From Escherichia virus TH37: a DNA stretch of 53,453 nucleotides. Shown one piece after another: positions 544 through 53,453 of this stretch. Position 1 is the stretch's first letter. Every line of letters begins with the position of its first letter. The translations under genes and the position numbers were made by a program. The DNA lies in the sequence record MT446409.1. The stretch is one strand, 5' to 3'. Below the pieces are notes generated by a model. That model saw only the letters and a list, made by a program, of their open reading frames with translations, was not told the origin of the DNA and made no database searches.

Positions 544-1217
544 TCCACATGGTACTCAGTATCTTGCAGGAATTCGATTGCAGCTTTCAGAGTCTTGGAT
601 GGCTTAACTTTGCCACCTTTAACGAAAGGCTTGCGACGAGATTCAGTTGTTACACGCTCAGTGAATGGAACTGAGGTATCTTTGGTTGTAACCAGTTCAA
701 CCCATGCGTCAGTCATCTGGAACGATTTGTCCTCGTTCATGGTGATGAAGCCAAAGTGCTTAGCTAAACCAATGAGGTTGATAGCTGGGTCAACATAGTG
801 CATTGACTTTAAGTCGTTGTTGTAACGGTTGGCATCAGCAATAGAAGAAGAAGCCAGCTCAACCATTGCAATGGCTGGGACAACATCATCACGAGTGAAT
901 GAGGTCATCATCTTGAAGATTGCGAGAGCAGCAATAGCACAGGTCTGAGGCTGCATATAGTTCTGTTTCTCTTTGGCACGGTATACCAGAGCCGTGATAG
1001 CAGGGACAACGGATTTGATAGTTTGAGTTGAGATAGTTGTCATTTTGCGAGTCTCCAAGTTAGTTTCGGTTTTAGTTTCGGATTGTGTAGCAGCAGTGAT
1101 TTCGTTAACCATTTGGTTGCAACGGTCCATCGTATCAAGCACGTCTTTCCAACCGTGGCCTTCTTCTTTTAAGCGAGCGCCATCAGCAGCCAGTGCACGA
1201 TATTCTTCATTAGTCAT
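1..1217 (-). CDS. T7-like single-subunit RNA polymerase, N-terminal part (gene runs off the window start; continues at 52013-53453 if the genome is circular)
   Basis: Minus-strand frame open from 1289 to 1; contains ...FADNRGRLYHVACAGPNPQ matching T7 RNAP FPYNMDWRGRVYAV; ATG at 1217 has GGAGA 5 nt upstream (alternative ATG at 1044); motif A-like LDAQYSGTQYL at window edge. Confidence 0.8.
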   Translation of the reverse strand, partial: MTNEEYRALAADGARLKEEGHGWKDVLDTMDRCNQMVNEITAATQSETKTETNLETRKMTTISTQTIKSVVPAITALVYRAKEKQNYMQPQTCAIAALAIFKMMTSFTRDDVVPAIAMVELASSSIADANRYNNDLKSMHYVDPAINLIGLAKHFGFITMNEDKSFQMTDAWVELVTTKDTSVPFTERVTTESRRKPFVKGGKVKPSKTLKAAIEFLQDTEYHVETEMVRIIQSMIEQRTYGGLQMPEAIQTELHVWNNAVAMVGQDTLFSDYFADNRGRLYHVACAGPNPQSSDFARCLYSHNVENIVKKFNEDGSTTIAYNMFMAELEDISGGDWTSAKRLTYVAQNPAGSLARMMNMPKAERPSTPFTYVRLALDWLKVETTGECDTRLGFCLDAQYSGTQY

Positions 1218-1279
1218 GATAGTCTCCAATTGATTATGATTTAACTGAAACGGATTAGACTTGCGTAGCCTATTCATAA

Positions 1280-1295
1280 TCACAACCAACTAATG
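1280..1295 (-). promoter_or_regulatory. Conserved phage promoter-like motif (gene-sense CATTAGTTGGTTGTGA), copy 1, 63 nt upstream of RNAP start
   Basis: One of 8 intergenic copies of a 16-mer, plus-strand consensus TCACATCCAACTAATG, all in the same orientation. Confidence 0.5.
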
Positions 1296-1824
1296 GTGAG
1301 ACTAGCTCATTACAACAGCGTGCTCTGATTGCCCTTGACCTTGACCCACTACCTAACTTGGTGTTGTTTGAAAGCCGATAGGCTGTAGAAAAAGTTGGGG
1401 TAGGGACCGTATTTAAGTCCGATAGGACGTTGGGCTTCCCCTCCCCGCCACCTCAAAAATAAAAAATAATATTAGGCGAACAAAGTGAGCAATTGCCACA
1501 ATTCTAGTCTCATTAATATTGTAGCAATTCGAGTCTCATTAATTCCGTAACAATATTTAAATTAAAAAAAAATTATATAAAAATTTTTATAACATAGTCG
1601 GACTTCTGTTCGAACAAATTCCGGCTAGATACAGCTGACCGACCATTTACCATTTGGTTTTGAACTTTACGCATTCCTAATATTACTCTAATATTGTAGC
1701 AATATTGGGAATAAGTAATATTGAAAACTTACTTATTTTATTCTAGCTCAAAGAGAAACGACGCTAACGCATCGAATCTCTTCTCACATATTAACTGACA
1801 AACGTCAGCCTTCACCATATCCAA

Positions 1825-2943
1825 TCATAATTCAAATCCACCCAGAGCATTGGTATCAACTTCGGAGTCAATTTGCCCAACCAGGTAGGAACTAATCTCC
1901 GTTTCCTGTGGAGCAACTTGTACAGCATCCGAATTCAACCATGCGTTAATCCATGGAATAGGATTCGTAGCACCTTTGAATGGGGCATCCAATCCAACTG
2001 CTTGCATACGAATATTCGTGATATATTCGACATATCCGCACAGAATTTGCTTGTTTAAGCCAATCATGGAGCCATCTTTGAACAGATAATCGGCCCAATC
2101 TTTCTCTTGTTGGGCAGCATCTTCGAACAATTTCTGGCATTCTTCGCGGCATTCTTGGGCAATTTCACCCATTTCTGGGTCATCTTTGCCACTCACCAGG
2201 ATATTCAACATGTGCTGAGTTCCAGTCAAATGGAGTGCTTCATCTCGTGCAATCAGTCGAATAATCTTGGCATTTCCTTCCATTAACTTGCGTTCAGCGA
2301 AGGCAAATGAGCAAGCAAAGCTAACATAGAAGCGAATTGCTTCAAGTGCGTTGATAGACATGAGGCATAAATAGAGCTTCTTCTTCAACTCACGAAGACT
2401 GATTTCATGACCAGCATGGTTCCCTTCTCCGAACAACTGCCATAATGCGGTTAGTTCTTGAAGCTCGTCATAATATTGGGAGATGCCAATTGCTCGTGCT
2501 TTGATATGCTCGTTAGTTACGATTTCATCAAAGATAATGCTTGGGTCTGTAACAATATTACGAATGATGTGGGTGTAAGAACGTGAATGGATAGTCTCGG
2601 AGAAAGACCAAGTTTCAATCCAAGTTTCAAGCTCAGGAATGCTCACAATTGGAAGCAAAACTGTGTTCGGTCCACGTCCTTGAATTGAGTCCAGAAGGAT
2701 TTGATATCGCAAATTACTGGTGAAAATGTGCTGTTCGTTTGCTGGAAGCTTCTGGTAATCAATACGGTCTTGTGAAACATCTACCTCTTCCGGTCTCCAG
2801 AAGAACGACAATTGTTTCTCAATCAACTTCTCAAATATGCCATACTTCTGCTGGTCATAGCGAGCAACGTTGACGTTCTGACCAAAGAACATTGGTTCTA
2901 ATAATTGGTTATTCTTGGTTTGTGAAAAGGTAGTGTAAGACAT
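1825..2943 (-). CDS. nrdB: Ribonucleotide reductase class Ia beta subunit (NrdB)
   Basis: 372 aa collinear with and near-identical to E. coli NrdB as recalled ([14 protein letters not shown]..., ...[21 protein letters not shown]). Confidence 0.95.
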
Positions 2944-2945
2944 TA

Positions 2946-3506
2946 TTATTTATTTCCTAAATACTTATAAAATTTATGTCCGCCATAAGTTCCTCTTCCA
3001 ACAACTCTTTTGAAATTACATTTCTCTGTAGCTGTGCAGAAGTGGGTGGCATCGGTTACATCCGGAGCATCCAACAATGCGAAGTTAATTGCTACATTCA
3101 TGGTGTCCCAAACCTGTTTTGATTCAGTCTTCCAATTTGTTTTAACTATGTTCTTCCATTGAGCATTCTTCTTCTTTGCTTCTCTTGTCCAAGCAAACTG
3201 GTTGCGTTGATAAACTACATCGCAAACGGTGTTAGCGAATGGCTTCCCGAATTTGATTCGATTACGGACGACATTAGCTACCAGAATCTTTCCATGTTTG
3301 CTTTCTCCACGAGCTTCAAACCAAATTACTTTGGCATAGCATTCTATATCTTTGCGTTGAGAAATAGATAGTTTCGGATTTCCATTTAAATAAGATTGAC
3401 TTGCAAATTCTGTAATAGTGGCGTTCACTGCCCCAGCCGAAGCTGGGACATTTGCGTGAAACAGACTCACCAACAGAAATGCAAGAACTTGTGCTGAGGG
3501 CATCAT
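2946..3506 (-). CDS. Endolysin, SleB/Hydrolase_2-type cell wall hydrolase with N-terminal signal or SAR sequence
   Basis: N-terminal hydrophobic leader [26 protein letters not shown]; WFEARGE and [13 protein letters not shown] motifs; adjacent to holin-like gene. Confidence 0.6.
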
Positions 3507-13670: not shown

Positions 13671-16600
13671 TTATCTACGTTCCATTGCACCATTACCCAT
13701 GTTGATTGTTTGGGTAACAGTTTGACCGTTAGGAGTTGACACGGTTGCAGACGCTTGCTTGTTGTTCACAGTAGCTTTGACTTCAACGTTAACTACAGTG
13801 GCCTGGGTCTGACCATAAGACAGTCCATTTCTGGTGAAGCCAGTTGCACCTTCCGCAATAGAATCGCCCTGAGAAGCCCATTCACGGTACTTCTTGACGC
13901 GGTTCTGTGCCTGTAGAGGAACAGCATTGAGCCAGTCGGTTCCGTGTTTGTTGATAGCATCATCAACAGTTCCAGCACCATCCGTATACGCCGCCATAGC
14001 CTTCTCAGCGTCACCATTATAACGCTTGAGCATTGCATCGTAGTAGTCACGACCAACGCGAGCACGCTCTTCCAGAGAGTTATCACGGGCAGGTGTAACG
14101 CCAAATCCTGGGTCACGGGAAGTTGAATCAAGAACTTGCATACGACCTTTAGCACCAGTCGGTGATGTGACTACCGAACCGTCTGCGTTCAAATCGCGGT
14201 TCCCTGACTCTTCTCCTGCGATAAAGTCATAAACATTACGTTCTGCATCGGCTGCACCGTTGGAGGTCATACGCATCACTCTGGCTGCGTCACCGCCTGC
14301 CTCAATAAAGGTGCTGCCGTATGAGATTGCAGCTTGCGGAACAGCGTAACCAGGCAATACCCCAGCACGCTCCGTCTGCGCGATTCCTAGCTGTGCAACG
14401 CCTTCGGCATAGTTTGAGTCGGCCCCACGCTGAACGTTCTCCTGAGCCTCGCCCATGCTGTATTCTGTGCGGTCATAGGCACGAGCCATGCCGTCCAGTC
14501 CAGCCATTTGCATAGCGCCAGCGATACGCGCCTGACTCCAGCCCCGTTCCTGACCACGTTCACGCATTACCCGCGCTAAGGTCACAGGGTCGCCCTGTGC
14601 CTGCCTAATGTCGCCAATGGTGATAAGGCCACGGGTTCCCTGAACAATGTTCACAGCGCCGCTGGGGTCGCCATTTAGGAGGGTGTTATAGGCACTATGT
14701 GTGGTTTGATTCAGTCGGTTGGCTTGCTGGGAATTAAGTCCTAACATCTCCATGCCCTGTGACATAGAAGAGTATTCGTTAGGATTATTTACACCAGCAT
14801 CTAACGAATTGCCATAGAAGTCGTTCAGACCTTCCAGAGCTTCGTTACCAATTTGGGTAGCACCAATAGCCATACCAGCGACACGACCCCACGGAGTCAT
14901 CATCATGGCATTCATAGCGCCATTGGATAAAGAGCCAATACTGCCACCAGCTACGCCAGCAGCTAATGCCCCACCCATGCGACCGAAGTCATCGCCAAAA
15001 CTGCCACCAGCTTGCCACCCACGACGCCCACCACCGCCACCAGAACCACCACCGCTAATGCCATAGCTACTAGCATCAATGTTGTCCCAGAAGCCGCCTG
15101 AGCGCCCACCGTCGCCACCGCCGAAATCTGCATCCTGACCACGGAGCTTGTTTTCTTCCTGTGCTGCGAGGATACCTTTCTTAACTGACACTGCCATCAG
15201 GTCATTGCCAGTTGTGCTATCAGCGCCAACAGCAGAGGCTGTAGCAGCACCAACTCCAGCATCGGTACGGTTGCCTATGAATGGGTCATCAGGTGTGCCA
15301 GCAGCAGGAGAGTAGCCACGATTTGACCTCTGCTTAACATCCTTCCACAGGCCGTCACCAGTCATGGCAGCACGAGCACCCTTGATTAAATCATCATTGG
15401 ACAAGTCTGGATTAGCTTCAACAAACTCTCGACCAGCATTAAGACGACCAATAACAGAATCAATCTTATCTTTGTTGCGGTCGTACCATCCTTCATCCTT
15501 GTCAATCCACTCCGACTTCGTGGTATCGCCGATGGTTTGAGAAAACAATGCGCGCGAACGACCAGATACAAGCATCCCAAATTGAATTTGGTCCATGTAA
15601 TCTTTATGGTCACCCGCAGATAAGTTGGCAAACTTGCCAGCCCTTTGAGGGTTCTTGTGTTCCCAAATCGCGTCATCGCCGATAAGACCATCTGGGGAAT
15701 ACATGAACGACGGATAATTGTCATTTGTAATTGCGCCAGCTTGCTCAATGTCGAATCCAAATTCTTTGGCTACACGGTTACGAGCAATTTCTTCAGTTCG
15801 GTGACCAGCTTCGAACATTCTTTGGGTAAATTCGCTTGGTCCTTTTCCGCGTTGCAGGCCAACTTTATCAACCATTGCAGCCCAAGGTCTGGTATATTCG
15901 TTGTTGCCAAGGAATGAACCAACAGTTGAGCCTGTAATGTCATATTGTTTACGGAAGTCTAACCACTCCTGAGTACCCTGTTCCATATTATGAAACTTGA
16001 TTGGGCCTTGTTGTGGTTCAGGCTGAGGAACAGCGGAATCCAGGTTTGCGATTGCAATGCTCTCACGACGAGAGCGAGCAGAGTTCCAACTCGTTGGTGA
16101 ATCAAGCTGTGCAATAAACTCTGTAGATGGATTTAATTCAACAGGTCCAGTGTTTCTTAGACGTTCAGCAGGGTCGAAAGTCTTACTGATTTCAGCTTCA
16201 TTATATTGGTGAGCATTCTCAAGTACACCACGAATAGATGCACCAGAGTAACGAGGGTCATCACCAATATCTTTCTTTAGGTTGTCATAACCAGAACGAG
16301 CATCTGCAAGGTCTGTATAACGAGATGCAGAATCAAGAATCAAATCTCGGTCAGAAGATTGAGTGCGATATGCGTTCATCCCCCGTTCTGAACCACCAGC
16401 ATATACCTTAGCAGCAGATTTAACTACGCCAGATACATCTTGATATAAAGATTTACTTGCATCAGACCAACCTGGGGAGCCAGATAATGATGCAGATAAA
16501 GAATATTCAGCTTTAATGCCAGAACCCATAGAGCCTAAAGGTAGGCCAGATGCGTTAAGCGGTTGTCGGGGATGTTGAATATCACCAACAATAGATTCAG

Positions 16601-17345
16601 AACCAAGTTGAGGAAGAGAATCCATGTATGAAACTCTTGGCCCCGACTTATTACCTACATTCATTGCAGATACAGCAGCAACTTCACGGAAGTTTTGCGG
16701 CAATTCTGATTCTAAACGTTTGGCTACACGATAAACATCTCGTGCATAGCGGTCTGGGTCGTCATATTGTTGACGGTCAACATACATATGAGCAAGATAG
16801 CCCATAGATTTGGCAATATCTCCACGGTTTGTAGAGTATTCACCCATAATGTCACCAGCGTAATGACCAGGAAGTTCCGGCATTATATCTTGATGACCTG
16901 CCAGCGTATCACGCATGTACGCATTAAGCATTCCCCAATGACCTTCTGGTTTGTTTGGGTTTGCTTTAGGCATGTGCATCCACACATCATCGGTGGATAC
17001 ACCTAATTTCTCCATGTAGGCATGAACAGCTTCTACATGGTGACTTGGACCGTTCATTGCAGCATGGAATGTTTCAGTAAGCCCAGCACCAGAAATCATC
17101 TGTGCAACGTGAGCTGAGTCTGAAATCATGTCGGAAGTGCCATAAGAGATGCCATCATCTTCTGTATAGGTTTCTTCCATAAGCTGTGAATTTGTTTCCA
17201 TCCAACCAGAGGCAGCACTTGATTCAAGTTGCTGTGCCATATCTCGTTTGCGCATACCTGGATTGAATGACAGACCATATTGAGCACCTAAGCCAATCAA
17301 TTCGGCTTCGGACATTCTCATTAAATCTTTTATGTTATTAGCCAT
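13671..17345 (-). CDS. Tape-measure-like large tail protein with internal lambda-Exo/YqaJ nuclease domain, Gly-rich segment and C-terminal lytic transglycosylase domain
   Basis: 1224 aa between GT chaperone and baseplate genes; residues ~450-640 QGTQEWLDFRKQYDITGSTVGS...SPDGLIGDDAIWEHKNP...YMDQIQFGMLVSG collinear with lambda Exo; residues ~1040-1130 EESGNRDL...GAKGRMQV SLT-like. Confidence 0.6.
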   Translation of the reverse strand: MANNIKDLMRMSEAELIGLGAQYGLSFNPGMRKRDMAQQLESSAASGWMETNSQLMEETYTEDDGISYGTSDMISDSAHVAQMISGAGLTETFHAAMNGPSHHVEAVHAYMEKLGVSTDDVWMHMPKANPNKPEGHWGMLNAYMRDTLAGHQDIMPELPGHYAGDIMGEYSTNRGDIAKSMGYLAHMYVDRQQYDDPDRYARDVYRVAKRLESELPQNFREVAAVSAMNVGNKSGPRVSYMDSLPQLGSESIVGDIQHPRQPLNASGLPLGSMGSGIKAEYSLSASLSGSPGWSDASKSLYQDVSGVVKSAAKVYAGGSERGMNAYRTQSSDRDLILDSASRYTDLADARSGYDNLKKDIGDDPRYSGASIRGVLENAHQYNEAEISKTFDPAERLRNTGPVELNPSTEFIAQLDSPTSWNSARSRRESIAIANLDSAVPQPEPQQGPIKFHNMEQGTQEWLDFRKQYDITGSTVGSFLGNNEYTRPWAAMVDKVGLQRGKGPSEFTQRMFEAGHRTEEIARNRVAKEFGFDIEQAGAITNDNYPSFMYSPDGLIGDDAIWEHKNPQRAGKFANLSAGDHKDYMDQIQFGMLVSGRSRALFSQTIGDTTKSEWIDKDEGWYDRNKDKIDSVIGRLNAGREFVEANPDLSNDDLIKGARAAMTGDGLWKDVKQRSNRGYSPAAGTPDDPFIGNRTDAGVGAATASAVGADSTTGNDLMAVSVKKGILAAQEENKLRGQDADFGGGDGGRSGGFWDNIDASSYGISGGGSGGGGGRRGWQAGGSFGDDFGRMGGALAAGVAGGSIGSLSNGAMNAMMMTPWGRVAGMAIGATQIGNEALEGLNDFYGNSLDAGVNNPNEYSSMSQGMEMLGLNSQQANRLNQTTHSAYNTLLNGDPSGAVNIVQGTRGLITIGDIRQAQGDPVTLARVMRERGQERGWSQARIAGAMQMAGLDGMARAYDRTEYSMGEAQENVQRGADSNYAEGVAQLGIAQTERAGVLPGYAVPQAAISYGSTFIEAGGDAARVMRMTSNGAADAERNVYDFIAGEESGNRDLNADGSVVTSPTGAKGRMQVLDSTSRDPGFGVTPARDNSLEERARVGRDYYDAMLKRYNGDAEKAMAAYTDGAGTVDDAINKHGTDWLNAVPLQAQNRVKKYREWASQGDSIAEGATGFTRNGLSYGQTQATVVNVEVKATVNNKQASATVSTPNGQTVTQTINMGNGAMERR

Positions 17346-28682: not shown

Positions 28683-29135
28683 CTAAACTCGTCCAGTTGA
28701 ACCAAGCCCACCTTCACCACGAACAGTGGAATTTAAGTGGTCAACTTCAACGAAATGGTGTTGAGTAGCTTTACTAACTTGCACTTGACAAACACGTTCG
28801 CCTGGTTGAATAACAAAGGCTGTGTCCGAGTCGTTGTGCAGCTTAACCATAAGATTACCGCGATAGTCGGAATCCAGAATGCCTGTGCAGTTTGCAAGGC
28901 GAATACCAGACTTAAAGCCGTGACCAGAACGGCTATGCACTTTGAGTTCGTATCCAATTGGTACTTCGAACTGGAGGCCAGTATCGACAACAACAGAAGA
29001 GCCGGGATTGATAACAACAGTGGTATCGGATACAGTACAAACATCAGCAGCAGCAGCACCAGCAGTAGCGTACACAGGTAATTTCGCATTAGGATGCACT
29101 CGTTTAACTGCAACAACTTGGGTCATACAAGACAT
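28683..29135 (-). CDS. dut: dUTP pyrophosphatase (dUTPase)
   Basis: 150 aa collinear with E. coli Dut: PVYATAGAAAADV, GILDSDYRGNLMV, IQPGERVCQ, RGEGGLGSTG. Confidence 0.9.
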   Translation of the reverse strand: MSCMTQVVAVKRVHPNAKLPVYATAGAAAADVCTVSDTTVVINPGSSVVVDTGLQFEVPIGYELKVHSRSGHGFKSGIRLANCTGILDSDYRGNLMVKLHNDSDTAFVIQPGERVCQVQVSKATQHHFVEVDHLNSTVRGEGGLGSTGRV

Positions 29136-37455: not shown

Positions 37456-38106
37456 TTATTCCTGATTGGTCAAAGCCTTCCAGCAAATCGGAAACAGTTC
37501 TGACATAATTTTATTCACTTCTTCCGCAAACAGGCGAACTTCATATTGCGCATGTTCGGAGGAACGTTGATTGTACATGGATGCCCAGCCATAAAGGGAG
37601 CCAGTCCAAACCCACTCAGTCATCATGGATTGTGGCAACACCATGCGAGCTTGCTCTGGGGCAATCCCCAAACCAATTAACGTTTCATATTCTGCAATGC
37701 AAGCCTTGTTATGGCTTTCCATACGATAATGAATATCGTCGGCAAAATCTTGTGGCAACGGTTGTGCAGTCTGAGTCATCAACTTCTCAGGACGACCGAG
37801 TACAACATCTGGTACAAAGCATTCAATCGAGATTGCTTCACCATCTTTGTAACGACGGCTAACTTCATTCCAGCTAAAGCCGGTTTGATGTTTGCCAAGC
37901 TGACGTGCAATGAAGATTGGAGCTTTGCAACGCAATGTTACCTGTGAGTGGCGAAATGGTGTAATGTGCTTATGCTTTGCAAGAAACTCAATCAGCTTCT
38001 CGTCACGCAAGGACATTTCATGCGACTCTGCACCATAGGAAACTCGTGCAGCATTAACAGTTGTAAGGTCGCTTCCCATGCTATCTACTAGTGTGGCAGT
38101 AATCAT
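37456..38106 (-). CDS. thyX: ThyX-family flavin-dependent thymidylate synthase homolog with altered RHR motif
   Basis: 216 aa collinear with ThyX (VDSMGSDLTTVNAARVSY, HITPF, KAPIFIARQ, SRRY, SEHAQYE), but KHQ where the RHR motif is expected. Confidence 0.7.
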   Translation of the reverse strand: MITATLVDSMGSDLTTVNAARVSYGAESHEMSLRDEKLIEFLAKHKHITPFRHSQVTLRCKAPIFIARQLGKHQTGFSWNEVSRRYKDGEAISIECFVPDVVLGRPEKLMTQTAQPLPQDFADDIHYRMESHNKACIAEYETLIGLGIAPEQARMVLPQSMMTEWVWTGSLYGWASMYNQRSSEHAQYEVRLFAEEVNKIMSELFPICWKALTNQE

Positions 38107-39548: not shown

Positions 39549-39689
39549 TTAGATGGCGCACGCACCACTTGAACAGTCGTTATCACCAGCACCAGGAACG
39601 ATTGCTTCTTCGTCCTGCTTCTTCTTCAGTTCTTCAATTGCTTCTTCGGCAGCACCGAAGTCTAAGTTATCAAGTGCATCAAAATCCAT
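39549..39689 (-). CDS. Mini-ORF whose C-terminus matches the class Ia RNR alpha (NrdA) C-terminal redox tail
   Basis: 46 aa MDFDALDNLDFGAAEEAIEELKKKQDEEAIVPGAGDNDCSSGACAI; last 17 residues ~10/17 identical to E. coli NrdA ...LVPSIQDDGCESGACKI as recalled; GGAG SD upstream. Confidence 0.35.
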   Translation of the reverse strand: MDFDALDNLDFGAAEEAIEELKKKQDEEAIVPGAGDNDCSSGACAI

Positions 39690-39719
39690 AAGGACTCCAG
39701 TGTTGCGGGTTATTAAAGC

Positions 39720-39815
39720 TGGTGGACAAGGTTGGATTCGAACCAACGACACATCTGTCGAACAGATTGCTCTACCTGACTAAGCTCTGGAGCAGACCTT
39801 CTGAGCTACTCGTCC
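39720..39815 (-). tRNA. tRNA-like element (anticodon-like loop UCG), atypical: ~21-nt extra segment between acceptor stem and D-arm
   Basis: Minus-sense GGACGAG-TA-...-GCTTAGTCAGGTAGAGC-...GTTGG-TTCGAAT-CCAAC-CTTGTCC-A-CCA: 7-bp acceptor stem, canonical T-arm, encoded CCA, but 96 nt long. Confidence 0.4.
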
Positions 39816-44254: not shown

Positions 44255-44764
44255 CTAGATTTTGTTTATGTATGCAAACTCGCCATGATACCTGAGTGCA
44301 GCAGCATTGTACGCCCTTGCCGCATCTTCTGGAGTATTGAAAGTGCCAAGGCATCTTCTTACACCATTCTCGGATATTCTGGCAACGTACTTGCCTCTAC
44401 TGCTTTTGTGGACACCTTTGTATCCAGAGGTGTTGGAGGTCGACACTCCTACGTTCATCAAGTTTTGTTTTGCAGACACATCACGAAGATTCTCAATTCT
44501 GTTGTTAAGGATATTCCTATCAACATGGTCTATAATCTTTGGGATATACCCATGATGTAGCCAGAATACTATCTGGTGAGCTTTCCATTTTGTACCTTCG
44601 ACAGATACTCTTAAGTACCCATCACTACACACATACCCAGCAACGTCTCCCGTACGAGCTTTTGGGCTAGTGGTTTGGGTTCGAATAAGGTTGCCCGTTT
44701 CTGGGCAATACCTTAAATATTTATCGAACCTTGGATTATTTCGGGAGTTCGAAATGAGGTGCAT
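44255..44764 (-). CDS. HNH-AP2 homing endonuclease
   Basis: 169 aa; HNH_3-like GYLRV...HQIVFWLHHG...IDHVDRN and AP2-like GYKGVHK...GKYVARI...GTFNTPEDAARAYN. Confidence 0.65.
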   Translation of the reverse strand: MHLISNSRNNPRFDKYLRYCPETGNLIRTQTTSPKARTGDVAGYVCSDGYLRVSVEGTKWKAHQIVFWLHHGYIPKIIDHVDRNILNNRIENLRDVSAKQNLMNVGVSTSNTSGYKGVHKSSRGKYVARISENGVRRCLGTFNTPEDAARAYNAAALRYHGEFAYINKI

Positions 44765-45131
44765 CCAAGAATTTAGCCCATTTAATAGGTTCTTCGTAGT
44801 GGGATAGCCACGTCGCCCCCCACCGTATAGTAATTCCCAATTCCTGTGCTGCCGAAAACATATGTTTAGCTAAAATTCTAAACCGTTCGAGGTCATTCCA
44901 GTCAATTGGATATGGTGCAATGTCCAAAGCGTTGCCTGACATGTGTCGGCTAACAGAAACTTTGGTTGCACCCTGCTTTAAAAGCTCTTGTTGACGTTCA
45001 TAAGAGCGTAAACCTTCCAGAACAGTTACATCAAAAGGCATGGTTTCACATGCCCGTTTGAAAACTGCCACTAATGAAGGATTTACTCCCTTAAGTCGGT
45101 CTAAAGAACGTTGGCCGAGCTTAACATTCAT
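44736..45131 (-). CDS. Peptidase M15 / LAS-family zinc peptidoglycan peptidase
   Basis: 131 aa; SRHMSGNALDIAP and DAPHFEL zinc-binding motifs. Confidence 0.55.
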   Translation of the reverse strand: MNVKLGQRSLDRLKGVNPSLVAVFKRACETMPFDVTVLEGLRSYERQQELLKQGATKVSVSRHMSGNALDIAPYPIDWNDLERFRILAKHMFSAAQELGITIRWGATWLSHYEEPIKWAKFLDAPHFELPK

Positions 45132-46871: not shown

Positions 46872-47243
46872 TTAGAATGGAATGTCGTCGTCGAAGTCTT
46901 TCGGCTCGTTCGGGTTATAATTGCTCTGCTGTTGTTGAGCAGGAGCTTGCTGTTGTGCAGAAGGTTGCTGGCGTTGCTGTTGCTGTTGAGCGGCAGCTTG
47001 AGGTTGAGCTTTGGCTTTAGCTTTCTCTTCACGCTTACGCATCATTTCATCAACCTGCTCTTGAGTCATGATGGTGAGTGCCAGTGAGGTAAATTCATTA
47101 TCGTTGGCTTGCTTGTTCCAACCAGACACCCAATACCAGATTCCGTCAACGTTAATACGTCCACGAATGTCAGGATGTTTTGGGTCTTTCTTGAAGCCGT
47201 TAGGACCGATAATGCCAGTGTTTACATCTGAATATTGTGCCAT
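46872..47243 (-). CDS. Small Gln-rich protein ending in the bacterial SSB C-terminal tip DFDDDIPF
   Basis: 123 aa; last 8 residues identical to the E. coli SSB tip as recalled; low-complexity Q/A-rich linker; short N-terminal domain. Confidence 0.5.
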   Translation of the reverse strand: MAQYSDVNTGIIGPNGFKKDPKHPDIRGRINVDGIWYWVSGWNKQANDNEFTSLALTIMTQEQVDEMMRKREEKAKAKAQPQAAAQQQQQRQQPSAQQQAPAQQQQSNYNPNEPKDFDDDIPF

Positions 47244-47368: not shown

Positions 47369-47821
47369 TCATTTACAGATAAATACCGGAATATCCATCT
47401 GGTTTAAATACTTAAGCATAAGTGGACGTACTTGTGTTGCATAGTCCAGCTGCCCATTTCCACAACCAAGTGGGGTTATTGCAAGTGAGGTTATTCCACA
47501 GCGTTTGTAGGTTTCCACCAACTTAACAAGGCCCTGTTCAATCCACCCAAGTTGAGAAGGATTTTGCCAATGTTGTTTTGTTGGGAAACATAGCCCAAGA
47601 CGGCCATCATTAAGACGCTGCAACAGCAATTGCCCAATCTTGAATCCACGGTTGCACGCAGTTCTGTAGTTCTTAAATGCTTCTGGATAGCGGCGTTTAT
47701 ACTCTTTTGCAACACCAGCACCCATTACGCCAACAAGATTCACAGTACAAGTTACAGTTTGCGCATCCACAGTAAATACGTTGGCCTTACCTTCAAATAC
47801 GATTGGCATAATCTTCTCCAA
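47369..47821 (-). CDS. Macrodomain protein (ADP-ribose binding/processing)
   Basis: 150 aa; VNLVGVMGAGVAKEYKRRYPE and ITSLAITPLGCGNGQLDY match macrodomain signatures. Confidence 0.65.
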   Translation of the reverse strand: MEKIMPIVFEGKANVFTVDAQTVTCTVNLVGVMGAGVAKEYKRRYPEAFKNYRTACNRGFKIGQLLLQRLNDGRLGLCFPTKQHWQNPSQLGWIEQGLVKLVETYKRCGITSLAITPLGCGNGQLDYATQVRPLMLKYLNQMDIPVFICK

Positions 47822-51229: not shown

Positions 51230-51950
51230 TTTATCCCAATATTGTCACAATATTTACATGCGATGATAAAGCCTTCGCTTGGCTGGAAGCCAGTATTCAT
51301 GCGGGTTGCAAGAATATTGGGTGAATATTGATACATTTATTACATGCGAAATTGGCACAAATACTGTTACAAAATTAACATGCCAGATTGGTAGACGATT
51401 GTATCTTCGAGGTGATTAGTCCTCTAACAATTCTGCCACATTCTAACATGCCAATTTGTAGCAATATTTACATGCCATACTGTAGCAATATTGCCACAAT
51501 ATTTGTTGCTCAAAATCGGGGCGGCTTCTGCGTGAAAACGAGAGGCTTTGCTCCGACTCTTCTCTTCTTTCGAATTCTGATTGAAAGAAAGAAGCATGTC
51601 CAAAAGTTCCAATATTACAAAAGTTATCTCCCGGCTTGTGGGTGGGCCTTTATAATAGGAGATGAAGCAATATTGTCGCAATTGAACATGCTTTAGTTGA
51701 AGAACAGTTTCGAATGATAATCCTACTTCACACATGGTTGCTGGAACTTTGTCCGGCCAAAGACAGGGAGTTCAATGATTGCCACATCATTACAACGCTG
51801 TGTGTTTAGTTGACATGCTGAAATGTTTCTAGAATGATTTCAACATGACATGCGGAAGACTTCTCCGTATTCTGTTACTTCACATCCAACTAATGTCGAA
51901 TATTGAAACAATATTACATGCAGCAATATTGCTTGAATATTGGGAATTAA
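51230..51950. repeat. Dense array of short repeats (palindromic CAATATTG / GCAATATTGC and TTACATGC units) in non-coding region
   Basis: About 12 ACATGC copies and at least 10 AATATTG copies within ~900 bp. Confidence 0.6.
51881..51896 (-). promoter_or_regulatory. Conserved phage promoter-like motif, copy 8
   Basis: Plus TCACATCCAACTAATG (consensus copy). Confidence 0.5.
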
Positions 51951-52012: not shown

Positions 52013-53453
52013 TTATTGACAGAAGTAGTAAGCGTGTTCGCTCATCAGAAGCTCTTCAGTAACAATGTTCTCATGGTACATGTTGATGCCACCAAGTTGC
52101 TTAGACAGAGATTCAAACTGATTATTGTGAACAAAGATTTCAACATAAGCAGAACGAATTACTTCCATCATTTTAGGAGCATCAGCTAAGCAGCAACGGA
52201 AACAATCGTGAATTGAAGTAAAGCCACGAAGACCAGCTTCTTTAGCTTTGACTGCAACAGTACGAGCAACCAATGCGTCAATACCTTGAATGTAGTTAAC
52301 AACGAAGGTACGCTTGAATTCTTCTTTAGTTGGGTTGGACTCACGAATGGTCCAAGGCTTATTCTCCTGAATCTGACCAAAGATAACACGAGTTTGAGAG
52401 TCAACACGAATGCTGAATGCCTCACAGATTTCACGAGATGGGAAGCAAGGCTTCATTACAACCTGACCATCAGTGTGACGATATGTGATGTACTCTTTAC
52501 CAAGTTCAACACAACGATTGTATGCAGCATCAGCAGCTTTCTCGATGAACATGTTAATCTTAGCACCCAATGCGTTATGGATTGCTTCTACACAAAGTTC
52601 AGCAAATGCTTCTGCTTTCTCAACAGGAATCTGGAGAGATGCTGTCATGTATGCAATGAAGTCAGAAGAACCAGTTAATGCAGCTTTACCACCACCATAT
52701 TGGATAGCCATGTATGGAGTTTTGATAAACTTACGACCAGCTTTCGGATTCAAGAATTCATCCATGATTTCAGCAGATGGTTTCATTGAAGAACGGTCAA
52801 GCAACTTCAACAGTTCACGAAGAGATAACTGGTATGGGTCAGATGCTTTAGTTGATGAATCAACCAGACCTGTTGCACGAGCCATCTCCATGTTACCAGC
52901 AATGAATGCCAGATATTGAGTACCAGAACATTTAGCATCTAAGCCAAAGCCTACACGAGAATCGCATTCACCTGTAGTCTCAAACTTGAACCAATCCAGA
53001 GCCAGACGAACATAAGTGAATGGCTTAGAAGGACGTTCAGCTTTAGGCATGTTCATCATGCGAGCAAGTGAACCAGCTGGATTCTGAGCAACATAAGTTA
53101 AACGCTTAGCAGAAGTCCAGTCTCCACCGGAAATATCTTCCAGCTCTGCCATAAACATGTTGTATGCAATGGTAGTAGAACCATCTTCGTTAAACTTCTT
53201 AACGATGTTCTCAACATTGTGAGAATACAAGCAACGAGCAAAGTCAGATGATTGTGGGTTAGGACCAGCACATGCTACATGGTACAGACGACCACGGTTA
53301 TCAGCAAAGTAGTCAGAGAACAGAGTGTCCTGACCAACCATTGCTACAGCATTGTTCCAAACATGGAGTTCAGTCTGGATTGCTTCTGGCATCTGCAAGC
53401 CACCATAAGTACGTTGTTCAATCATAGACTGGATGATGCGAACCATCTCAGTC
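52013..53453 (-). CDS. T7-like single-subunit RNA polymerase, C-terminal part (N-terminus beyond the window end; matches 1-1217 across the repeat)
   Basis: DNRGRLYHV, motif A-like GLDAKCSGTQYLAF, motif B-like KTPYMAIQYGGGK, motif C IHDCFRCC collinear with T7 RNAP DWRGRVYAV / DGSCSGIQHF / MTLAYGS / IHDSFGT. Confidence 0.85.
   Translation of the reverse strand, partial: TEMVRIIQSMIEQRTYGGLQMPEAIQTELHVWNNAVAMVGQDTLFSDYFADNRGRLYHVACAGPNPQSSDFARCLYSHNVENIVKKFNEDGSTTIAYNMFMAELEDISGGDWTSAKRLTYVAQNPAGSLARMMNMPKAERPSKPFTYVRLALDWFKFETTGECDSRVGFGLDAKCSGTQYLAFIAGNMEMARATGLVDSSTKASDPYQLSLRELLKLLDRSSMKPSAEIMDEFLNPKAGRKFIKTPYMAIQYGGGKAALTGSSDFIAYMTASLQIPVEKAEAFAELCVEAIHNALGAKINMFIEKAADAAYNRCVELGKEYITYRHTDGQVVMKPCFPSREICEAFSIRVDSQTRVIFGQIQENKPWTIRESNPTKEEFKRTFVVNYIQGIDALVARTVAVKAKEAGLRGFTSIHDCFRCCLADAPKMMEVIRSAYVEIFVHNNQFESLSKQLGGINMYHENIVTEELLMSEHAYYFCQ

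Follow-up and report, generated by a model that had tools for sequence, protein, structure and literature searches.

An orphan class Ia ribonucleotide reductase beta-subunit gene in Escherichia virus TH37: probable pairing with host NrdA, and a candidate peptide resembling the NrdA tail

A phage that carries the gene for the beta subunit of a class Ia ribonucleotide reductase (RNR), NrdB, in a genome with no recognisable gene for the alpha subunit, NrdA, raises the question of what the product of that gene works with. Such an nrdB is found in Escherichia virus TH37 (MT446409.1), within the stretch of 53,453 nt analysed here (the window), and a first-pass annotation, made from the sequence by itself, had proposed that its product would have to pair with the NrdA of the host. 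The final 543 bases of the window are the same as the first 543, and this terminal repeat closes the sequence at a unit of 52,910 bp. Thus the genome is complete, and an nrdA lying beyond the window, which would have removed the need for a host partner, cannot be supplied by further sequence.

TH37 is a Carltongylesvirus-like phage of the Chaseviridae (Cleopatravirinae), with TH25 and PYps3T as its nearest relatives, and all of its genes are carried on the minus strand. The order of genes around nrdB is tail fibre assembly, holin, endolysin (PF07486), nrdB, a terminator-like hairpin, about 600 bp of non-coding DNA and a T7-type RNA polymerase gene, the last of which spans the boundary of the sequence as presented; nrdB therefore does lie at the distal end of the late region, as had been annotated. 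The features of this region, together with two further genes of nucleotide metabolism, are as follows.

1825..2943, minus strand: nrdB, class Ia ribonucleotide reductase beta subunit, 372 aa (PF00268, NF006576, 80% to E. coli NrdB)
2953..2958, minus strand: Shine-Dalgarno sequence AGGAAA of nrdB (AGGA 9 nt upstream), read from the sequence
1749..1774, minus strand: hairpin resembling a terminator, CGATGCGTTAGCGTCG and then a T-rich run, some 50 nt past the nrdB stop
1217..1824, minus strand: AT-rich non-coding stretch from nrdB to the RNA polymerase gene, with two exact copies of ATTGCTACAATATTA
37456..38106, minus strand: ThyX thymidylate synthase (PF02511, 2.2e-42)
28683..29135, minus strand: dUTPase (PF00692, 3.5e-23)

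The endolysin stop codon, TAA, occupies 2946-2948, leaving a gap of 2 nt to the ATG of nrdB, and for the orthologue in phage ST32 the Shine-Dalgarno sequence has been given as AGGAAAT (PMC6266442). Hairpin-like sites around 1749..1774 are no commoner than in shuffled sequence, and it is only the position of this one that is suggestive of a terminator. Several related records start within the non-coding stretch 1217..1824, which places the conventional genome end inside it. The presence of ThyX and dUTPase genes indicates that the phage invests in dNTP supply. As the last cistron of the late and lysis genes, after the endolysin and before the hairpin, nrdB occupies an unexpected place, one that is odd for a gene of the replication phase. 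No tRNA was detected in TH37 with ARAGORN, and Rfam gave just one, below threshold.

The annotation of a full-length NrdB is borne out. The gene, at 1825-2943 on the minus strand, starts with ATG, and its product of 372 aa matches Pfam PF00268 (4.8e-50; 170.9 bits against a cut-off of 33.6) and the NCBIfam equivalog NF006576, "class Ia RNR subunit beta" (717 bits against a cut-off of 346), over its full length, residues 1-372 aligning with positions 1-376 of the model. The nearest solved structures are E. coli R2 chains (about 1e-204). The six diiron ligands (D84, E115, H118, E204, E238 and H241), the radical-bearing Tyr122, W48 and Y356 of the radical transfer pathway, and D237 and E350 are identical in 6/6 phage NrdB copies, so that none of the radical-site residues has been lost. 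Also retained is the C-terminal tail that docks onto NrdA: 15 of its last 20 residues are the same as in E. coli, including the D-x-L-x-x-F-x-L pattern, and it falls within the range found among host genera, being of the enterobacterial alpha-docking type. Among the phage nrdB copies, dN/dS is 0.017-0.07 over a synonymous divergence of 0.34-0.81, compared with 0.028 for nrdB of E. coli versus Klebsiella, and none of the 45 phage genomes that carry the gene has a frameshift or stop codon in it. To judge from these patterns of substitution, strong purifying selection, comparable to that on the host gene, maintains phage nrdB as a working enzyme subunit.

One part of the first-pass annotation does not survive comparison with bacterial sequences, namely that this NrdB is near-identical to the enterobacterial protein. 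The phage protein matches E. coli NrdB at 300/376 positions (80%) and has a single deletion of 4 residues, the two genes being about 72% identical as DNA. The closest cellular relatives are in the Enterobacteriaceae (78-80%), followed by other Enterobacterales and Pasteurellaceae (76-77%), and E. coli NrdB is itself nearer to the NrdB of Haemophilus (85%) than to the phage copy (80%). Neighbour-joining places the phage copies in a single clade in 100/100 bootstraps, and this clade is nested within the Enterobacteriaceae in 0/100; the sampled bacteria, an Enterobacterales-Pasteurellales cluster, group apart from the phage copies in 58-68/100, a grouping to which a long branch may contribute. 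GC3 is 0.425 in TH37 nrdB and 0.438 in the TH37 genome, versus 0.646 in E. coli nrdB, and synonymous sites are saturated between the phage and E. coli genes. We therefore reject a recent capture of nrdB from E. coli, on the grounds of 80% identity, saturated synonymous sites, phage-like GC3 and the 0/100 nesting. On the same sequence evidence, phage nrdB is best described as host-like in kind and long-resident in the phage lineage: it shares with E. coli NrdB its family, length, metal site, radical pathway and tail type, and differs from the E. coli nrdAB-yfaE operon in having no adjacent nrdA or yfaE, and in the 4-residue deletion, which falls in a hairpin loop. Plasmid matches to nrdB in E. 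coli genomes numbered 203; the best matches in PLSDB are multi-megabase records or very large replicons with an ordinary nrdB, at 77-80% identity.

The absence of an alpha subunit, which the first-pass annotation had noted from the open reading frames, was confirmed at several levels of sensitivity. A tblastn search of the complete TH37 genome with E. coli NrdA gave a best match of E=0.63 over 17 aa, and no RNR large subunit of any class was found in Pfam scans of 33 TH37 ORFs. These include all ten ORFs of at least 335 aa, the tail, baseplate and smallest ORFs being covered by the six-frame search below, and the scans assigned a terminase, portal, sheath, polymerase, primase-helicase, RNA polymerase, ThyX, dUTPase and ligase, among others. 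The ORFs of at least 300 aa are all either assigned by Pfam or syntenic with replication, tail or baseplate genes annotated in the phages MLP1 and Berlingot. When all six-frame segments of 25 residues or more were searched, with filters switched off, with a profile drawn from 135 NrdA sequences, the best E was 4.4, and it is mainly because this search is empty that we regard a remote alpha subunit as absent too. The TH37 nrdB is thus not encoded together with an alpha gene as an nrdAB pair. A YfaE-like ferredoxin, flavodoxin, thioredoxin and glutaredoxin were also sought in TH37 and none was found, which implies that proteins for loading and maintaining the cofactor must come from the host.

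As to how widely this arrangement is distributed, 45 phage records have a portal protein at least 95% identical to that of TH37 and 45 have an nrdB at least 90% identical; these are apparently the same set, the overlap having been checked for the listed records. In every listed, annotated relative of TH37, nrdB directly follows the endolysin gene. The TH37 product is 99.5% identical to those of TH25 and PYps3T, 98% to that of phiEcoM-GJ1 and 90% to that of ST32, and there is no difference of substance from phiEcoM-GJ1 gp75 and ST32 ORF79, each of which is the last ORF after the endolysin in a genome that lacks an alpha gene. The only close relatives contributed by IMG/VR were GJ1 and a Mangalitsa-like contig. 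Two further NrdB relatives from the searches were discarded: P0004 (494 aa), in which PVSYTHLDVYKRQ segments recur that we take to be translated Nextera adaptor sequence, is an assembly artefact, and P0016 is a chimeric NrdA-NrdB call.

The orphan status of this gene is already known for the phage genus, and TH37 adds one more genome. Dwivedi et al. (2013) reported two phages with nrdB alone, phiEcoM-GJ1 being listed as nrdB only in their Table S1, and left open whether such incomplete sets are functional (PMC3653736), while the description of ST32 identified the final ORF of ST32 and of phiEcoM-GJ1 as an RNR beta subunit (PMC6266442). In the sister genus Loessnervirus, represented by Erwinia phage Berlingot, the gene order runs from the endolysin straight to the RNA polymerase with no nrdB between them, and no RNR-like gene was found in the first 50 kb of its 53.5 kb genome. 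The lack of nrdB in Loessnervirus indicates that the gene is accessory rather than core. The replication module of the Aeromonas phage ZPAH14, also of the Chaseviridae, includes both nrdA and nrdB as a complete pair, with an alpha subunit that contains an ATP-cone and barrel; the ZPAH14 NrdB is only 33% identical to that of TH37, and this distance, together with the location in the replication module, argues for separate gains. By these comparisons the orphan nrdB is thus a separate, genus-level gain at the genome end. Like the NrdAB of T4, the nrdA-nrdB pair of the Grimontviridae and the nrdAB of ZPAH14, it is a phage-borne class Ia gene concerned with dNTP supply, but in all three of those systems alpha and beta are found side by side, unlike in TH37.

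Because the genome is complete, NrdB is intact and under purifying selection, and an alpha subunit is absent, we take the view that the product must use the NrdA of the host. This logic of the first-pass proposal stands, shorn of the near-identity that had accompanied it and of any novelty in the orphan status, and the sequence-based tests that bear on the pairing (tblastn, closure of the genome, residues, selection and profile search) all support it. We consider it probable that phage beta2 and host NrdA (alpha2) form an active hybrid class Ia reductase that sustains the dNTP supply of the phage. The phage gene would give rise to a functional beta2 subunit with a diferric-tyrosyl radical; during infection this beta2 would dock on host alpha2 via its conserved C-terminal tail to yield a hybrid class Ia reductase; and the hybrid would raise or sustain deoxynucleotide synthesis for phage DNA replication. 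The benefit could arise, for example, after transcription of host nrdAB has stopped, or because active, radical-bearing beta2 is limiting. The steps that we infer are that NrdB physically pairs with host NrdA, that the hybrid is enzymatically active and that the phage benefits. In the literature we found no published binding or activity experiment on this NrdB or on that of any member of the Chaseviridae.

A precedent exists in eukaryotic viruses. Most chordopoxviruses encode R2 alone, and a hybrid with host R1 has been demonstrated and is needed for replication (PMC2900304). In this R2-only type the large subunit is absent while the catalytic residues and the R1-binding C-terminus are kept (Gammon et al. 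2010, PMC2900304). TH37 nrdB shows the same sequence hallmarks as a viral orphan small subunit of the poxvirus F4 type: like vaccinia F4, it is a small subunit alone with its catalytic residues and its alpha-binding C-terminus preserved. The poxvirus proteins differ in belonging to a eukaryotic system and to another R2 lineage, and the TH37 hybrid is proposed from sequence. If our reading is correct, the orphan phage nrdB would be a clean bacterial-virus counterpart of the R2-only strategy, with the implication that it is the radical-bearing small subunit, and not the catalytic large subunit, that limits dNTP synthesis in the infected enterobacterial cell. A TH37-type phage and E. coli would make an easy test system for this strategy.

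Other roles for the phage subunit can be envisaged, the least improbable of which is that it alters the regulation of host RNR. The hybrid could escape feedback by dATP, by not forming the inactive alpha4beta4 ring, or could escape the NrdR-controlled supply of the host enzyme, and the outcome would be unchecked dNTP synthesis, as with the T4 enzyme. Among 40 bacterial NrdBs 269 alignment columns are invariant; 15 of these are altered in all phage copies, mostly conservatively, and the phage-specific changes at such positions (H68C/N, I161Q, Q306G, R328A, V340N and N343A) could be taken as signs of altered behaviour. So could a surface beta-hairpin that shortens stepwise, from E. coli NrdB (376 aa) to the two length forms found among the relatives of TH37, the GJ1 type (372 aa) and the ST32 type (366 aa), the latter with an extra deletion in the loop. 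However, I297, which in the available passages of a description of the alpha4beta4 interface is the sole beta residue named (PMC11447812), is identical in 6/6 phage copies, and we regard altered regulation as unlikely.

A considerably smaller chance attaches to the phage NrdB being an inhibitor or decoy, one that binds host NrdA or mixes with host NrdB and so shuts down or diverts nucleotide reduction by the host. Conservation of the alpha-docking tail would fit such a role, and a catalytically dead R2 of vaccinia is dominant negative (PMC2900304). A decoy would, however, have no need of the diiron site, Y122, W48 or Y356, which are all invariant, and nothing else in the phage supplies RNR activity.

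That nrdB is a functionless leftover, either the decaying remnant of an nrdAB pair or a passenger from the host, is already contradicted by the selection data and we give it hardly any credence: the gene is missing from the sister genus and lies at the end of the genome, a place where accessory genes collect, but its low dN/dS has been maintained over synonymous divergence of up to 0.8, all 45 genomes keep it open, the catalytic residues are all retained and the base composition is fully phage-like. Equally implausible is that NrdB works with an unrecognised catalytic partner encoded by the phage, or catalyses a reaction other than ribonucleotide reduction, such as that of an R2-like oxidase; about half of the small TH37 ORFs are without a known family in the Pfam scans, but no ORF resembles any RNR alpha even by profile, those of at least 300 aa are all accounted for by family or synteny, and models of R2-like ligand-binding oxidases score only 19.6-25 bits against cut-offs of 194-315.

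The hybrid with host NrdA is thus the reading that we carry forward, and the search for an alpha subunit had one by-product that bears on it. The best tblastn match of NrdA in TH37, non-significant as it is, corresponds to the C-terminal end of a small ORF.

39549..39689, minus strand: 46-aa ORF MDFDALDNLDFGAAEEAIEELKKKQDEEAIVPGAGDNDCSSGACAI, preceded by a Shine-Dalgarno sequence (GGAG, 39695-39698) and collinear over its last 17-19 residues with the NrdA dithiol tail

This ORF ends in ...VPGAGDNDCSSGACAI, collinear with the host NrdA tail ...VPSIQDDGCESGACKI, the enterobacterial NrdA C-terminus being ...DDLVPSIQDDGCESGACKI. Common to the two are V-P, six residues, and C-x-S-G-A-C-x-I followed by the stop codon, in the same register and in both cases at the C-terminus; at the very end, ...GDNDCSSGACAI-stop in the ORF compares with ...QDDGCESGACKI-stop in more than 80 enterobacterial NrdAs. 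The ORF thus has the hallmarks of a dithiol tail, with a Cys pair in its last 8 residues, acidic residues preceding it, a hydrophobic end and a C-terminal position. The expectation of the end motif by chance is 8e-5 per genome (six frames), it occurred 0 times in 300 shuffles, and in 1.3 Mb of fetched loci it was found solely at true NrdA ends or in this peptide. Homology to NrdA does not reach significance (E=0.63 by tblastn, E=14 with the NrdA profile) because the match is too short. Neither tblastn nor the NrdA profile detected any further NrdA-like fragment in TH37.

The segment of NrdA that is matched is the one that contains Cys754 and Cys759. These two residues accept electrons from thioredoxin or glutaredoxin and re-reduce the active site, and the tail is disordered in crystal structures of NrdA. 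In yeast, the small protein Sml1 competes with the C-terminal domain of R1. The roles of C754/C759 and of Sml1 are said to go back to work by Aberg in 1989, Mao in 1992 and Zhang in 2007. The phage peptide resembles the tail of a class I alpha subunit such as that of E. coli NrdA in its end motif, spacing and terminal position, and differs in being free-standing, 45-46 residues long and located outside an alpha subunit. We found no paper describing such a tail-like peptide.

The pattern of substitution indicates that the ORF is a real gene. Compared with ST32 there are 13 nucleotide differences, the codon changes being 11 synonymous and 1 non-synonymous, and compared with TH53 there are 11 synonymous and 3 non-synonymous codon changes; both cysteines are invariant across the relatives compared. 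With substitutions almost all synonymous, we take it to be a protein-coding gene. The annotations of ST32 (gp35) and MLP1 list it as a hypothetical protein, and those of GJ1, PO103-1 and Bp7 omit it. Of 50,697 phage records, 45 match the peptide at E<=10; all of them belong to one phage group, and they are apparently the same 45 that have the orphan nrdB.

Relatives of the peptide occur outside this group. The Erwinia jumbo phage AH04 (262,639 bp), which has a PhuZ-like tubulin and multi-subunit RNA polymerases and is unrelated to TH37, carries a host-like nrdB whose product is 76% identical to that of TH37, and no NrdA was found in its full genome (best profile E=2). The 45-aa AH04_15, (M)DFDLDDLAFDGLDEAEARNKERQDEANKEAAAIGDEADCEGCKI, shares with the TH37 peptide an N-terminal DFD..L..L.F, its length and a D.DC..C.I end, and its gene starts 5 nt after that of a GrxA-type glutaredoxin. 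On metagenomic jumbo-phage contigs the 45-aa gene always lies 2-13 nt after a PF00462 glutaredoxin gene, and in Pantoea phage Survivor a single ORF of 164 aa contains the peptide fused to a glutaredoxin domain. Within the one genus, the co-occurrence of peptide and orphan nrdB is a single evolutionary event, and the jumbo phage is the only independent case. The association is not exclusive, as we had considered it might be, since two carriers of the peptide family are without an RNR gene: the T7-like Salmonella phage KKP 3828, which has neither NrdA nor NrdB, and the nrdB-less Berlingot, within the 50 kb examined.

In PHROGs the peptide family is phrog_10239, of unknown function. The profile of this family matches AH04_15 (8e-6), the metagenomic relative P0125 (1.6e-3) and the tail of phiEaP8 (5e-4), and gives no match to the TH37 peptide at E<=1. 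A profile of our alignment A1 finds the peptides of TH37 (2e-23) and AH04 (2e-20), both of which are members of the alignment, and also matches the Berlingot protein, which is not (4e-4). A profile search of 5.8 billion proteins returned 32 clusters with the peptide family. The enterobacterial C-x4-C spacing is found in the Carltongylesvirus subfamily and, outside it, solely in P0125 and P0149, both short relatives from metagenomes, the others having C-x2-C.

On the basis of the adjacency and fusion to glutaredoxin, the resemblance to the tail and the purifying selection, a thiol-redox role tied to RNR or its reductants is our best guess for this peptide. The 46-aa ORF is best regarded as a candidate trans-acting partner of RNR or of a redoxin, a lead and not a finding. 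We tentatively suggest, as a possibility that we would put at somewhat less than even, that the phage gives host NrdA two parts that act in trans, its own beta2 and a free-standing, 46-residue copy of the dithiol tail, in which case such peptides would be unrecognised phage modulators of host RNR or of the supply of its reductants. On this view, host thioredoxin or glutaredoxin would reduce the peptide, and the peptide would either pass electrons to the NrdA active site or compete there; its role could be that of a shuttle, regenerating host NrdA in trans, or it could compete for the reductants. If true, a minimal peptide would let phages tune the regeneration step of RNR. Re-reduction being a slow step in turnover, this would be of interest to enzymologists working on RNR, and the peptide could offer a template from which to develop peptide modulators of an antibacterial target that is already validated. 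The tail-like peptide, more than the orphan nrdB, deserves a bench experiment. Reductant modules attached to RNR subunits are themselves known, in the form of glutaredoxin-NrdB fusions (NCBIfam NF009398; a Grx-domain match to phrog_86).

A short ORF in the window ends in ...VPGAGDNDCSSGACAI, apparently a copy of the redox-active tail at the C-terminus of enterobacterial NrdA (...VPSIQDDGCESGACKI).

39549–39689, minus strand: 46-aa ORF with NrdA-tail-like C-terminus

The ORF is under purifying selection and is present in 45 phage records, every one of them from the genus of the window; in several GenBank records it carries no annotation. Directly upstream lies a degenerate tRNA-like sequence (39731–39786, minus strand). 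Its match to the Rfam tRNA model, over model positions 9–63, reaches 27.9 bits (gathering score 29), and ARAGORN calls no tRNA there.

Relatives of the peptide are linked to glutaredoxin (Grx) in jumbo phages, listed here with coordinates within each locus.

L171, 18221–18617: glutaredoxin gene and 45-aa peptide relative, Erwinia phage AH04
L178, 2093–2587: glutaredoxin–peptide fusion ORF, Pantoea phage Survivor
L181 and L184: Grx–peptide gene pair, metagenomic jumbo-phage contigs

In AH04, too, a host-like nrdB stands as an orphan: NrdA is absent from the whole 262,639 bp of this phage. Its 45-aa peptide relative lies immediately 3' of the glutaredoxin gene. This gene pair is kept in the metagenomic contigs; in Survivor a single ORF joins glutaredoxin and peptide. 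In both AH04 and Survivor, tRNA genes are found upstream of the Grx–peptide genes, as is the tRNA-like sequence upstream of the peptide in the window.

In other phages the peptide module forms the end of longer proteins (coordinates again within each locus).

L186, 18349–18633: T7-like Salmonella phage KKP 3828
L003, 3628–3882: Loessnervirus Erwinia phage Berlingot
L179, 441–761: N4-like Erwinia phage phiEaP8

In all three the module ends in ...DCEGCKI or ...DCDGCKI. The match in phiEaP8 is confined to the last ~20 residues (...DEGDCEGCKI), placed after a Gp49/Gp66 domain (PF13876). KKP 3828 lacks an RNR gene, and none was found within the 50 kb read of Berlingot.

Several other ORFs of the window are of note.

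46872–47243, minus strand: 123-aa ORF with the tip DFDDDIPF, at the position of a gene annotated as single-stranded DNA-binding protein (SSB) in the relative MLP1
13671–17345, minus strand: 1224-aa tail protein with YqaJ-type exonuclease and SLT lytic transglycosylase domains
47369–47821, minus strand: Macro-domain protein, early region
44255–45131, minus strand: HNH-AP2 endonuclease adjoining M15 peptidase, early region

The DFDDDIPF tip matches that of the E. coli SSB C-terminus, which makes the 123-aa ORF a further host-tail look-alike besides the peptide.

In NrdB itself, a surface beta-hairpin loop (residues ~169–180; window ~2405–2440) shrinks stepwise, from the 376-aa E. coli protein through the 372-aa GJ1-type form, which includes that of the window, to the 366-aa ST32-type form. 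Record PP952070.1 is entered as 'Staphylococcus phage Pel53', with Staphylococcus hyicus as stated host; relative to the coliphage group of the window its NrdB is 98.9% identical and its 46-aa peptide 100% identical, and the host label looks wrong.

The window contig closes into a circle whose cut point lies within the RNA polymerase gene.

1–543 and 52911–53453: terminal overlap, 543 bases, 98% identity
1514–1528, 1689–1703, 51490–51504, 51668–51682 and 51902–51916: motif ATTGCTACAATATTA and variants

The last 400 bases of the overlap are identical and ~11 mismatches fall within the first ~143; these mismatches suggest assembly noise or population variation. The motif flanks the RNA polymerase gene on both sides: two copies are exact and three carry 2 mismatches, where chance would give 0.22 occurrences. 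These copies may be early promoters or operators.
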